Shown here in pieces: positions 7,350-12,019 of a stretch of 64,000 nucleotides of DNA. Numbering within the stretch: the stretch's first letter is position 1; each line of letters begins with the position of its first letter. The DNA is from Dehalococcoidia bacterium (GTDB taxonomy: Bacteria; Chloroflexota; Dehalococcoidia; UBA2979). The notes below the pieces were generated by a model. The model ran no database searches, was not told the DNA's origin, and worked only from the letters and a program-made list of their open reading frames with translations. Both the position numbers and the translations under genes were made by a program. The stretch spans positions 1,024,001 through 1,088,000 of the forward strand of contig CAXXDN010000002.1 in the NCBI GenBank assembly GCA_963667465.2. The letters are read 5' to 3'.

Positions 7350-8193
7350 CCTCCGCCTGCCGCAGTTGCGCTGGCAGCGCCGGCGAGGCCGCCGCTCACG
7401 CGCCGCCGCGCGGCCGGGCCGCTATGAGCTCGGGCGCGCCGCGCCGCCTCGCCCGAAGCGACGGCTGCTGCCACGCCTGCCCTGGCGGCGGCTCGCGCTC
7501 ACGGCGCTCGCCATCGCGGTCCTCGGCGGCCTCGGCTACGGCGGGTTCTGGCTCGTCGACGGGCCCGCGCTGCGCGTGCAGCAGATCACGATCGAGGGCG
7601 CGGAGGTCGCCGACCCGCTTGCGATCGCCCGCAGCGCGGACATCGACAAGCGATCGCTGCTCACGCTCGACACAACCACGATCGCGGACCGCATCACCGG
7701 GGGCGTACCCGCGGTCCAGAGCGCCACGGTGCGCCGTGAATGGCCGCAGGGCGTCAGGATCAGCGTCAGCGAGCACGCCGGCTGGGGTTACTGGCAATCG
7801 GGCGGTCGCCGCGTCGTGATCGACGCTTCCGGCCTCGTGATCCCCGCCGGGCGGCCCCCGCCCGAGGGCGCGGTGACGATCTTCGAGATCGGCGCGACGC
7901 GGCCCCTCGAACCGTGGGGCGTCGCCGAGCCCGACACGCTCACCGCCGTCAAGCAGCTGATCGAGGACGCCCGGTCGCAGCGGCTCGGCGTCGCGATTCA
8001 GCGCTTCGAGCTCCACTCCGACCGGGGGCTCGTCGTACGCATCGCGGACGGCCCGGACGCGATCTTTGGCGACTGGCGCAACTACAGCTTCAAGGTTGCA
8101 GCCTGGGGCGCGTTGCTCAACCGACTCGAGCGCGAGCCGCTCGAGATCAACGAGATCGATTTGCGGTTCGGGGCAAAGTTGGTGGTGCGCTGA
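7342..8193 (+). CDS. ftsQ: Cell division protein FtsQ/DivIB
   Basis: Arg-rich N-terminus, one TM helix, POTRA-like segment (VRREWPQGVRISVSE), C-terminal IDLRF; lies between ddl and ftsA. Confidence 0.85.
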   Translation: MPSLRLPQLRWQRRRGRRSRAAARPGRYELGRAAPPRPKRRLLPRLPWRRLALTALAIAVLGGLGYGGFWLVDGPALRVQQITIEGAEVADPLAIARSADIDKRSLLTLDTTTIADRITGGVPAVQSATVRREWPQGVRISVSEHAGWGYWQSGGRRVVIDASGLVIPAGRPPPEGAVTIFEIGATRPLEPWGVAEPDTLTAVKQLIEDARSQRLGVAIQRFELHSDRGLVVRIADGPDAIFGDWRNYSFKVAAWGALLNRLEREPLEINEIDLRFGAKLVVR

Positions 8194-9431
8194 TGGCTCA
8201 ACCAACGTTCGCCGCAATCGACATCGGCAGCACGAAGATCTGCACGGTGGTGGCGGAGGTCATCAACGGCAGCGAGATCCGCATCCTCGGCGTGGGCGTC
8301 GGACCGTCGCAGGGGATCACGCGCGGCATGGTGGACAACATCCACGCCGCGATGGAGGCGATCTCGTCCTCCGTGCAGCGCGCCGAGCGCGCGGCCGGGG
8401 TGCGCATCCTCTCCGCCCACGTCGGCTTCACCGGGCCGCACGTCTCCTCGATGGGCTCGCGCGGCATCGTCGCGATCAGCGACCCACGGCAGCCGATCAG
8501 CGAGAGCGACACGGACCGGGCGCTGGAGAGCGCGCGCATCGTCAACATCCCCAACAACCGCGAGGTGGTCCACGTGGTGCCCCGCTACTACGTGGTGGAC
8601 GGGCAGGACCACGTCACGAACGCGCTCGGCATGTTCGGCTCCAGGCTGGACATGGAGACGCACGTCGTGACCGCCGGAAGCTCCGCCGTCCAGAACATCC
8701 TGCGTTGCGTCGAGGGCGCCGGCGTCCACGTCGACTCGCTGATCGTGGGGCCGCTTGCAGCGGCCGAGGCAGCGGCCGAGCGCGAGGAGCTGGAGCACGG
8801 CGCGGTGCTCATCGACATCGGCGGGGGCGCCACGGACATCGCCGTCTTCGTGCGCGGCACACTGGTGCACACGGCCGTCCTGCCGGTCGGCGGCGCGCAG
8901 ATGACGGGCGACCTCGTGGTCGCGCTGCGCGTGCCGCAACCGGCCGCCGAGCAGGCCAAGATCGCGCACGGCCACGCACTCGCCTCGCTCGTCGACGAAT
9001 ACGACCACGTCGAGATCGACGCCTTCGGCGCCGAGGGCCGCAAGGAGATCCCCAAGCGCTTCATCGCCCAGGTCCTGCAAGCGCGCTGCGAGGAGCTGCT
9101 GGAGATGGTGCGTGCCGAGGTGCGGCGCGGCGCGCAGACCGAGCTGCTCGCCGCCGGCGCGGTGCTGACCGGTGGCGGGGCCTCGGTGCGCGGCCTCGAC
9201 CTGCTCGCCGAGGAAGTGCTCGAGCTGCCCGCGCGCATCGGCCGGCCGCGCCACCTGGCCGGGCTCTCCGACCTGCTGAACGACCCCGCCTATTCGACCT
9301 CGGTCGGCCTGCTGCGCTGGGCGCTGCGCGAGCAGGAAATTATGTTGCGCCCCGCTCCGCGCCGCCGCCGCGGCATCGGCGGCCTGTTCCGGAAGGTCGC
9401 GCAGTTGATGCGCGTCGTGCTCCCCCAGTGA
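8193..9431 (+). CDS. ftsA: Cell division protein FtsA
   Basis: ATG 8193 (TGATG overlap); IDIGSTKI, IDIGGGATD, VLTGGGA, C-terminal amphipathic helix. Confidence 0.96.
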   Translation: MAQPTFAAIDIGSTKICTVVAEVINGSEIRILGVGVGPSQGITRGMVDNIHAAMEAISSSVQRAERAAGVRILSAHVGFTGPHVSSMGSRGIVAISDPRQPISESDTDRALESARIVNIPNNREVVHVVPRYYVVDGQDHVTNALGMFGSRLDMETHVVTAGSSAVQNILRCVEGAGVHVDSLIVGPLAAAEAAAEREELEHGAVLIDIGGGATDIAVFVRGTLVHTAVLPVGGAQMTGDLVVALRVPQPAAEQAKIAHGHALASLVDEYDHVEIDAFGAEGRKEIPKRFIAQVLQARCEELLEMVRAEVRRGAQTELLAAGAVLTGGGASVRGLDLLAEEVLELPARIGRPRHLAGLSDLLNDPAYSTSVGLLRWALREQEIMLRPAPRRRRGIGGLFRKVAQLMRVVLPQ

Positions 9432-9461
9432 TGACTCCCCCAGGAAGCCTTGGAGGCAGCG

Positions 9462-11204
9462 ATGACGAACCTCGCACATGAACCAGGCAGCCGGCCCGCC
9501 GAGCCACCCGGCGCCGCCGCGACGGGTTCCGGCGACGCGGCGCCGCTGTTCGACTACCTCGAGGCGGCCCGCGCGGAGGCGCGCTCGCTTGCGGAAGCCA
9601 ACCCCGCCCCGCTCGACCTGAGCGCCGAGCCGCTGTCCGCCGACGCGCACTCCGAGTTCGACGTCGCGGCCCCGGACACGCCTCAGGCCGAAGCCACGGC
9701 GCCGATGGAGGCGCAGGCCACGATGCCTGTCGAGGCGGCGGCCGAACCCGGCGCCGAGGTCCAGGAAGAGCCAGCTCCGGCGCAGGCCGGGGCGGCCCTC
9801 GATCCGGCGGCGGAAGCCAAGGCCGAAGCGCCGCCCGAGCCGCCCGAGGAGGTCGAGGCGCTCGCCGAACCTCCAGCCGAGGCCGCGGCACCGGCAGAAG
9901 CGACCGTCGAGGCAGCGACCGAAGCCCCGGCGGAGGCGGCGGCCCAAGCGCCCGCCGAGCCGGCTGCGGCGGAAGCCGAGGCGCCTCCCGAGGACACAGC
10001 CCGGAGCACCACGCCCCGGAGCAGAGCAACACGAGCACGCAAGGGATCGCGGGCAGCCCGCCAGACACAGCCCCGCAGCAGTTCCACAGGCCCACGGAAG
10101 GAGTCCGCCATGCAGAGGAACTACGACACGCTCCCGCCGATCAAGGTCGTCGGAGTCGGGGGAGGCGGCTCGAACGCCGTCAACCGCATGATTCCGGACC
10201 GCCTGCCTGGCGTGCAGTACGTGGCGCTGAACACGGACATGCAAGCCCTCGAGAACTGCGAGGCCGAACTCAAGGTTCGCCTCGGCGACCGCATCACGAA
10301 GGGTCTCGGCGCGGGCTCCGACCCGCTGCGCGGCCACCGCGCCGCCGAGGAGTCGCGCGAGTCGATCATCGAGGCGCTGCAGGGCGCGGAGATGGTCTTC
10401 GTGACGGCCTGCCTCGGAGGCGGCACAGGTACCGGGGCGGCGCCGATCGTCGCCGAGGCCGCCCGCGAGATCGGAGCGCTCACCATCGGCGTGGTCACCA
10501 AGCCTTTCGCCTTCGAGGGATCGAAGCGACGCCAGCAGGCCGAAGAGGGCGTGCGCGACCTCCAGGACAAGGTCGACACGCTGATCGTGATCCCGAACGA
10601 CCGCCTGCTGCAGGTCTGCGACGAGGCCGTGCCGATGACGGAGGCGTTCCGCAAGGCGGACGACGTGCTGCGCCAGGGCATCGAGGGCATCAGCCAGCTG
10701 ATCACCGTGCCGGGCATTGTGAACCTCGACTTCGCGGACGTGCGCCGCGTCATGTCGGACGCGGGTCCCGCGCTGATGGCGATTGGCTCCGGTCAGGGCG
10801 AGCAGCGAGCCGTCGAGGCCGCCCGCCGCGCGATCGCCAGCCCGCTGCTGGAGGTCGACATCACCGGGGCGACCGGCGTGATCTTCAACGTCACTGGCCC
10901 CTCGAACCTCTCACTGCAGGAGCTCAACACCGCCGCGCGGGCCATCGCCGAGGTCGTCGACCCGGAGGCGGAGATCATCTTCGGCGCTGCGATCGACGAG
11001 GGGCTCGAGGACGAGGTGCGAATCACGGTCGTGGCGACGGGCTTCTCCGGGATGCGCCAGTCTCTCGCCGGGTTCGTCGAGACAGGGATCGAGATCGACG
11101 TGCCGCCGCGCGCGGAGCCGGTCGCCGACACCTCGCAGCTGCCCGACGCGCTGACGGACTCCGACCTGCCGGCGTTTCTGAGGAGGACCTTCCCGAAGCG
11201 TTAG
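9462..11204 (+). CDS. ftsZ: Cell division protein FtsZ; canonical domain starts at ATG 10110, preceded in frame by a 216-aa low-complexity extension
   Basis: [32 protein letters not shown]-terminal [13 protein letters not shown] precedes ATG 9462 and AAGGAG precedes ATG 10110. Confidence 0.95.
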
Positions 11205-11276
11205 GTCAGGTGCGGCGGCTCGGCGCGATCCGCTGTCGAGCGCACTTGTCCACAGTCCGTAACAAATCGTTGGCAA

Positions 11277-11303
11277 GAGGGGTGGCCCGGCGGGTCGCCC
11301 CTC
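11277..11303 (+). terminator. GC-rich hairpin downstream of ftsZ (possible terminator or processing stem)
   Basis: GAGGGGTGGCCC-GGC-GGGTCGCCCCTC gives a 12-bp stem with two G-U pairs; no U-tract. Confidence 0.35.
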
Positions 11304-11485
11304 CTGCGACTGCCGGGTGCGCCGGGCGCCCGGCGCCCCGTTCGAGCGATCAACAACGGGCTTGCGGTGGCCAGTGGACACGTTCGCCACAGTCTGTGGA
11401 CTGCCGCCGTTGTCGCCTCGGCGCCCCCGGTGCTGTACTCCCCAGACCCGGAATTCTCCCACTGCTCCCCAAGGAGCCAGCATTG

Positions 11486-12019
11486 ATGACCTGCCCGAGC
11501 TGCGGCCACCGTTCCACGACCGTCGTCGAGTCACAGCAGAACGGTACGGGCGTGAGACGCAGCCGCCGCTGCGAGGACTGCAACGCCCTCTTCAGCACCT
11601 ACGAGCAGCCCGAGGCGACCCGCGTGTTGGTCCGGAAGCGTGACGGGCGCCGCGAGCACTTCCAGCGCGAGAAGCTGCTCACCAGCCTCCGCCTCTCCGC
11701 CCGCAAACGTGATCTCACCGCCGCCGCCATCGAGGCGGTCGTCGAGGACATCGAGCGGCGCATCGCCGCGTCCGACTCGACCGAGGTGCCGAGCCGCGTG
11801 ATCGGCGAGATGGCGATCGCGCACTTGCGCACCCTCGACCCGATCGCCTACATCCGCTTCGCCTCGGCCTATCGCCAGTTCGTTTCCCTGGACGACATGT
11901 TCGACGAGCTGGAGCGGCTGGAGTACAGCGCGATGCCCCCGGCCGCGCAGCCCTCGCTGTTCGACGAGCAGCTGCCGCACGCTCCTCGCCACATCGCCAG
12001 CGCTCCCTCGCTGCGCTGA
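11486..12019 (+). CDS. nrdR: Transcriptional repressor NrdR
   Basis: AAGGAG SD; CPSC..RRSRRCEDC zinc ribbon, ATP-cone (RKRDGRRE..FQREKL), AYIRFASAY. Confidence 0.95.
   Translation: MTCPSCGHRSTTVVESQQNGTGVRRSRRCEDCNALFSTYEQPEATRVLVRKRDGRREHFQREKLLTSLRLSARKRDLTAAAIEAVVEDIERRIAASDSTEVPSRVIGEMAIAHLRTLDPIAYIRFASAYRQFVSLDDMFDELERLEYSAMPPAAQPSLFDEQLPHAPRHIASAPSLR

Follow-up and report, generated by a model that had tools for sequence, protein, structure and literature searches.

The ftsZ locus

The 64,000-nucleotide stretch analyzed here (the window) holds a dcw cluster in which mraY, murD, ftsW, murG, murC, ddl, and ftsQ can be recognized from their open reading frame (ORF) translations and ftsA and ftsZ are confirmed by Pfam. 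There is one copy of ftsZ, placed after ftsQ-ftsA, and downstream of the cluster come nrdR and then ribonucleotide reductase. The FtsA protein has an intact C-terminal amphipathic membrane helix, with a hydrophobic moment of 0.77. The closest named relatives of the armed protein are from Dehalococcoidia/Chloroflexota MAGs, and an HGW-Chloroflexi-9 record aligns over query residues 16 to 573. According to PMC10608941, the GTDB lineage UBA2979 is "Ca. Bathosphaeria," and basal Dehalococcoidia retain dcw genes that Dehalococcoidales and SAR202 lost.

The ftsZ frame extends well upstream of its canonical start (Table 1). An earlier note on this DNA had described two ATG codons joined by an open frame, each with its own ribosome-binding site, and this is what the locus contains: an N-terminal arm of 216 codons without a stop, with the GGAGG and AAGGAG elements both present. 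The helix-like motif that it pointed out is located at residues 28 to 43, and the acidic Ala/Pro/Glu tract is also real, the 216-aa arm being 59% A+P+E with a net charge of -24. An Arg/Ser/Thr-rich stretch (residues 179 to 216) closes the arm. Could a stop codon have been lost in assembly? This is excluded because the same 580-aa protein is encoded in another assembly by a second, strain-level sequence (P0026). Neither an internal sigma-70 promoter nor a terminator was found at positions 8000 to 11600, where the chance expectation is near zero, and Rfam gave no match at the locus.

Table 1. Features of the ftsA-ftsZ region (positions in the window)
Feature	Position	Strand	Basis or remark
ftsA	8193..9431	+	upstream of ftsZ in the dcw cluster; Pfam FtsA, E=7e-45
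Shine-Dalgarno of start 1 (GGAGG)	9452..9456	+	5 nt before ATG 9462
Long FtsZ, 580 aa, start 1	9462..11204	+	ORF without a stop between ATG 9462 and ATG 10110
Motif 1, predicted helix, residues 29-45	9546..9596	+	alignment A1, synonymous codon variation, AlphaFold
Motif 2, LDL(S/T)A(E/D)P...SE(F/Y)(D/E), residues 51-67	9612..9662	+	family alignment
Acidic Ala/Pro/Glu linker, predicted disordered	9663..9995	+	length and sequence free
A-rich, basic segment before start 2	9996..10109	+	codon usage, family charge profile
Shine-Dalgarno of start 2 (AAGGAG)	10098..10103	+	6 nt before ATG 10110
Short, canonical FtsZ, 364 aa, start 2	10110..11204	+	Pfam, structure match

The core that follows the arm is, by prediction, an intact FtsZ. 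It scores 153 bits against Pfam PF00091 (Tubulin; cutoff, 33) and 114 bits against PF12327 (FtsZ_C; cutoff, 27), and its AlphaFold model is normal, with 300 residues aligned to Bacillus subtilis FtsZ (2vam) at a Z score of 38.2 and an rmsd of 2.3. The GGGTGTG loop, NLDFAD, and the C-terminal DLPAFLRR peptide all lie within the core, and the features by which FtsZ is recognized, the GGGTG(S/T)G loop, the T7 loop, and the conserved C-terminal peptide, are invariant in alignment A1. The N-terminal peptide of the short form sits at its usual place, a model helix at 218 to 223 aligning with Methanocaldococcus jannaschii residues near 28 to 36. Armed cores share about 20 family-specific invariant residues; a search for core residues that covary with loss of motif 2 was confounded by descent. 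Separately, the genomes of several Dehalococcoidia families each contain two to five FtsZ matches.

Two observations were made downstream. The gap between ftsZ and nrdR (11205-11485) contains two similar words, CCACAGTCCGTAAC near 11250 and CCACAGTCTGTGGAC near 11387, as well as GC-rich stretches that resemble hairpins; together these are possible regulator sites, without an Rfam match. The product of nrdR itself (11486-12019; loci L001-L168) ends in a tail in which Q-x-x-L-F (QPSLF, QPRLF, QAKLF) is conserved in nearly all loci listed; the tail in other families reads QLxL. The Q-x-x-L-F sequence resembles the sliding-clamp-binding motif, which is unusual for the repressor NrdR.

Conservation of the arm

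Is the arm a genuine coding sequence? An FtsZ match was found in 91 of 99 family genomes, and upstream DNA was taken for 81, which with record L105 makes 82 rows; excluded were one genome with a contig that starts at the second ATG, three whose genes are 5' partial, and six of the eight members of one divergent genus. Seven rows end at a contig edge before motif 1, leaving 75 that are complete. In 73 of these no stop or frameshift separates the first start from the core; the other two are L017 (a TAA) and L048 (a frameshift). An open frame and a conserved LFDYL-type motif are what the earlier note proposed to look for in relatives. Counted over 73 rows (those in which motif 1 is in frame and both starts could be assigned, a set without L048 and L089), the arm frame has 1 stop in 14,282 codons, whereas the other two frames have 249 and 281. 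The arms are 73 to 339 aa long, with a median of 196 (72 measured among 73 open arms). Indels keep the frame as well, 67 of 84 being multiples of 3 in 14 pairwise DNA alignments; the family genomes are related, so none of these counts are independent. The open frames, stop counts, and frame-keeping indels strongly support a coding arm: it is almost certainly real, conserved, and coding, and, as judged from these comparisons, it is under coding selection.

In database searches the motifs turned up only in such arms: an FtsZ domain is present in all 38 long hits of one set and in 22 of 23 in another, whose remaining member is a partial sequence that runs into FtsZ. Profile A2 returned 22 and 23 hits, all with the family motifs; the set of 22, drawn from 1.84 billion representatives, consists of arms of this kind, fragments of them, or fusions. 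The hosts of armed FtsZ are Dehalococcoidia.

Some records deserve separate mention. L105 is an armed FtsZ of the Dehalococcoidia family on a contig filed under Streptomyces and is likely misbinned. The contig of L025/L090 begins at start 2 and has a frameshifted core; it was left out as a probable assembly error. L088 and L089, from a single genus, have very divergent FtsZ (about 46% identity) and FtsA; in their arm, NYL[QE]D replaces motif 1, and the C-terminal DLPxFL peptide is not recognizable. L081 and L085, from AT-rich small genomes, have a 141- to 145-aa Asn/Asp/Glu arm with only an (L/F)FDLF motif.

Two motifs and a free linker

Within the arm, conservation is concentrated in two places. 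Motif 1 is LFDYLxxAR, in which L29, F30, Y32, and L33 are invariant and D31 and A36 are at least 90% conserved (alignment A1, 60 proteins). The earlier note had singled out this motif but overlooked a second one at residues 51 to 67, where D52, L53, S64, and E65 are nearly invariant in the 60 aligned proteins. Invariant motif residues use up to six synonymous codons. Both motifs occur in 66 rows, motif 1 alone in 4, and a degenerate form in 3; the SE[FY] part of motif 2 is present in 66 of the 70 loci with a strict motif 1.

What does the arm look like in structural terms? In the full-length AlphaFold model, the linker is disordered, with pLDDT below 50 over most of residues 74 to 217. Residues 31 to 70 reach 69 to 83 in the full-length model and 83 to 90 when the arm is folded alone, and helix 29-45 is present in both models. 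Docking of the motifs on the core, once read from the full-length pLDDT, was dropped, because confidence is equally high without the core. The modeled block at 31 to 70 could be a small unit that folds or associates with itself, or its confidence could simply reflect strong conservation. Foldseek gave no match for the arm fold at E<=0.001, and the best VIA Z score was 2.1; none of this shows a new fold; the arm sequence had no PDB match, no Pfam hit, and no Atlas hit.

The segment just before start 2 is a different matter. The earlier note saw a switch from an acidic to an Arg/Ser/Thr-rich basic stretch and suggested a charge-patterned arm that might affect condensate behavior. The stretch is strongly basic in the window and the acidic part of the arm is general, but basicity is not conserved: over the last 30 codons, the family net charge rises from about -1.5 to near zero, only +0.1 to +0.5 per 10 residues, while A3 goes from 0.1 to 0.2. 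In the window, the segment has a CAI of 0.36, versus 0.69 in the motif region and 0.75 in the core, and an A3 of 0.29, versus 0.04 in the core. Since its codons are A rich, selection for open mRNA fits better than protein function, and the basic segment is probably a side effect of keeping the mRNA around the second start open. The conserved parts of the aligned arms are two short motifs, not a charge pattern, and the condensate idea is unsupported.

A probable second start inside the gene

Start 1 pairs with the 3' end of the genome's own 16S rRNA at -9.3 kcal/mol (family median, -9.0; 80% at or below -6), and start 2 does so at -10.8 kcal/mol; for the comparison of loci, the anti-Shine-Dalgarno sequence of G000 was applied throughout. 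Start 2 was sought as a start 8 to 40 codons before GVGGGG, with a Shine-Dalgarno threshold of -6 kcal/mol. That threshold is reached in 70 of 73 rows, versus 44 of 265 equal linker windows subjected to the same selection. When the nearest ATG is chosen regardless of Shine-Dalgarno strength, it is present in 78 of 82 rows, and 72 of these 78 reach -6. The linker's own purine-rich positions do so in only 18%. The second site is weak in L050 (-3.5) and L085 (-3.9), and L089 has none within 40 codons.

Is this simply a consequence of the amino acids encoded there? Across 81 rows, 51 different tetrapeptides overlie the start 2 Shine-Dalgarno sequence while purines are kept at 98 to 99% at positions -11 to -9; because the peptides vary and the purines persist, selection acts on the RNA. 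The mRNA is also open at both starts, with median folding energies over -20 to +20 of -6.5 at start 1 and -6.1 at start 2, compared with -11.7 at core ATGs (n = 519) and -11.4 at linker ATGs (n = 81). Start 2 thus has the marks of a gene within a gene: it is internal, in frame, and conserved, with its own Shine-Dalgarno sequence and open mRNA.

Two loci in which the arm is interrupted are instructive. L048 (arm region on the minus strand) carries 22 nt that its sister L055 does not have, and this insertion cuts the first frame short at 90 aa, a length that takes in motif 1 but not motif 2. Exactly this 90-aa peptide is encoded on five contigs from three sources (NCBI, Logan, and ENA), and a variant differing at one residue terminates at the identical position; the break is probably natural, although the contigs may share samples and an error in a single base is still conceivable. 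Since the arm frame is broken and the sole ftsZ core is single and intact, FtsZ must start internally here, the candidates being start 2 (-6.9) or an ATG before motif 2 (-9.4, versus -5.4 in the sister). In L017, a TAA lies in the linker; none of the listed contig pieces of four runs bridges it (in the best run, the break is at 2654-2731), and the protein collection searched does not contain the truncated product. The L017 stop is unconfirmed, while L048 shows that the fusion is not strictly required.

Both starts, then, carry the signatures of initiation, and it is likely that both are used and yield two isoforms. The earlier note had proposed as much from the two ribosome-binding sites; conservation, mRNA structure, and a natural split allele have been added to its case.

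Other Dehalococcoidia families and origin of the layout

How widespread is the two-start layout? The 63 loci compared from other Dehalococcoidia families are the closest FtsZ hits and hence a nonrandom sample; in the 57 with a recognizable ftsA end, an in-frame ATG/GTG with a Shine-Dalgarno sequence at least 10 codons before the canonical start occurs in 29, versus 1 and 4 out of frame. By family, these are 9 of 9 in f47, 9 of 16 in f16, 1 of 1 in each of three families, 8 of 16 among unassigned loci, and 0 of 13 across nine families. A single start was found in 18 more distant loci. The upstream peptides in these families are unrelated to the family arm. That of f47 has its own helix-like motif, Q-x-V-M-F-E-x-E, in which Q5, M8, F9, E10, and E12 are invariant in 12, and this lies directly before start 2 or is set off by a Pro/Ala/Glu linker, giving an arm-like architecture. 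Profile comparison did not support homology of motif 1 to the f47 motif (probability, 0.2%), despite a visual L/M-F-D/E likeness. As a side observation, L164, L166, and L170 carry an extension of 17 codons, MELFEALEQ, which varies synonymously and is accompanied by two strong ribosome-binding sites; by eye, it resembles motif 1 more closely than anything else outside the family. Two 100-base stretches at L219 and L220 held nothing relevant.

In a 52-row tree, the 24 armed cores form one clade (100/100) on a long stem (0.65). Two rows from the divergent genus are long branches of unsure place, and the short-arm rows are scattered over an unresolved base. The two-start layout may thus have one origin with losses or several origins. 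In the same tree, the short layout is found in a family grouping with a Tepidiformaceae record. The Tepidiformaceae have cultured members.

What might the arm do?

The explanation that we favor, with moderate confidence, is that a two-start ftsZ supplies a long and a short FtsZ that co-assemble, with the arm serving as a binding module on an acidic tether. The 580-aa and the normal 364-aa proteins would form mixed filaments in which a fraction of the subunits carry a tethered binding unit, the length of the linker making it a long acidic tether. The ratio of the two starts would set the density of decoration, because a ring built solely of subunits with 200-residue acidic arms would probably pack poorly. 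We consider it probable that the two motifs together make up a single small interaction unit and that the linker sets only reach and repulsion. More tentatively, and with less than even confidence, the unit might link or space neighboring protofilaments, either by associating with itself or by way of a divisome partner such as FtsA, a job done elsewhere by SepF or ZapA.

Why a cross-linker or spacer? SepF and ZapA were each found in 0 of 44 Dehalococcoidia genomes (43 of them at least 90% complete; 7 controls were detected in the SepF search), MinC gave no match above the cutoff in the same 44, with one weak hit and its controls detected, and DivIVA was not found in G000. The lack of detectable SepF, ZapA, and MinC in these genomes favors a tethered cross-linking or spacing module, and N-terminal peptides are known to affect how FtsZ bundles, disassembles, and binds partners (PMC6175996; PMC12137876). 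From the undetected accessory proteins, the intact FtsA and C-terminal peptide, and these precedents, we infer the mixed filament. Many armless Dehalococcoidia likewise have no detectable SepF, ZapA, or MinC, so the arm does not track their loss, which weakens any argument that it replaces them. It is a rather doubtful extension that several peptidoglycan-retaining families, apparently repeatedly, use a two-start ftsZ and an optional module as a Z-ring organizer in place of SepF/ZapA/MinC-type factors, the start ratio setting the architecture.

The main rival accepts two isoforms and makes the arm an inhibitor that docks on the core in cis or trans, favoring disassembly or capping, as a stand-in for MinC and an enlarged version of the E. 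coli FtsZ N-terminal disassembly element. The long stem of the armed-core clade, its roughly 20 family-specific residues, and the MinC result all speak for it, but shared descent explains those residues equally well, motif confidence is as high without the core, and the short form retains its own N-terminal peptide at the usual place; we think this reading unlikely. Less probable still is that only the long form is made and that the second ATG and its purine tract are an ancestral-start relic or a pause site. Glu, Gly, Lys, and Arg codons are purine rich anyway, and the poor sites of L050, L085, and L089 would suit it. Against this, the start 2 site persists while the overlying amino acids change (51 in 81), it is as unstructured as start 1, the linker's purine-rich positions seldom match it, and the split allele L048 needs an internal start.

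Could the short FtsZ alone divide the cell, the upstream frame being a regulatory leader or degron that controls the amount of FtsZ, with the fusion inert or rapidly degraded? The fusion is, after all, broken in 2 of 75 loci, and the linker sequence is unconstrained. A free peptide or ribosome traffic alone would let stops accumulate in a linker of 100 to 250 codons, though, and they do not; moreover, indels keep the frame, and the long database hits are FtsZ fusions, so that we give this very little credence. Least credible of all is that motif 1 is an amphipathic helix tethering FtsZ directly to the membrane. A helix containing L, F, Y, and L is predicted for it, and SepF is missing, but its hydrophobic moment is 0.28, versus 0.77 for the FtsA helix, which is unlike a MinD/FtsA-type helix; its surroundings are acidic, identities rather than a pattern are invariant, and an intact FtsA is encoded next door.

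Relation to known systems

The favored reading, an optional binding module on a fraction of FtsZ subunits, has partial parallels elsewhere. Closest at first sight is the cyanobacterial FtsZ N-terminal peptide of Anabaena PCC 7120 (PMC6175996), which is likewise clade specific, conserved, and always attached to FtsZ; it is often misannotated and is needed for normal polymer shape and division. It differs in being 20 to just over 80 aa long, versus 73 to 339 in Dehalococcoidia, and in supporting binding of SepF, which was not found in the 44 Dehalococcoidia genomes; the available parts of that paper describe no conserved second start, which the Dehalococcoidia arm has. The arm profile matched only Dehalococcoidia-type arms and nothing in Pfam, in a comparison set to which the Anabaena peptide itself did not belong. 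Like the cis disassembly element of E. coli FtsZ (N-IDR, residues 1 to 10; PMC12137876), which modulates assembly and is targeted by partners such as ZapA, the arm is a predicted disordered N terminus. The N-IDR, in contrast, has about 10 residues and is present on every subunit, whereas the arm would be an optional addition 150 to 300 residues away. Helix H0/H-1 of M. jannaschii FtsZ also lies N-terminally outside the GTPase core and contacts neighboring subunits (PMC6175996). H0 abuts the core and aligns with model residues 215 to 223, not with motif 1.

Long and short isoforms made by internal initiation are familiar from IF2 and CheA. Vibrio Fha (PMC13389060), Salmonella SpaO (PMC13059759), and AerR (PMC6199135) are further reported cases of one gene with an internal start and two products; in such systems the in-frame start is conserved, and the products have a common C-terminal region and are able to co-assemble. 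The standard protein is the long form in those cases, with a fragment of it as the short form, whereas here the short FtsZ is the complete standard protein. None of these systems is FtsZ.

No bacterial division protein has been studied more than FtsZ, whose long disordered linker is normally C-terminal. In a full-text literature largely composed of papers outside subscription, no paper was found that deals with two starts in ftsZ or with an FtsZ arm in Dehalococcoidia; such long FtsZ sequences could appear, without remark, in the supplementary alignments of PMC9871819 or PMC10608941. If the proposal is true, an optional arm of 70 to 340 residues would be a translational route to a mixed filament, like tubulin isotypes drawn from a single gene. 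For ring organization in bacteria with no detectable SepF, ZapA, or MinC, the arm would offer a defined, purifiable candidate, and the link to Tepidiformaceae would make the question of the isoforms testable in cells.
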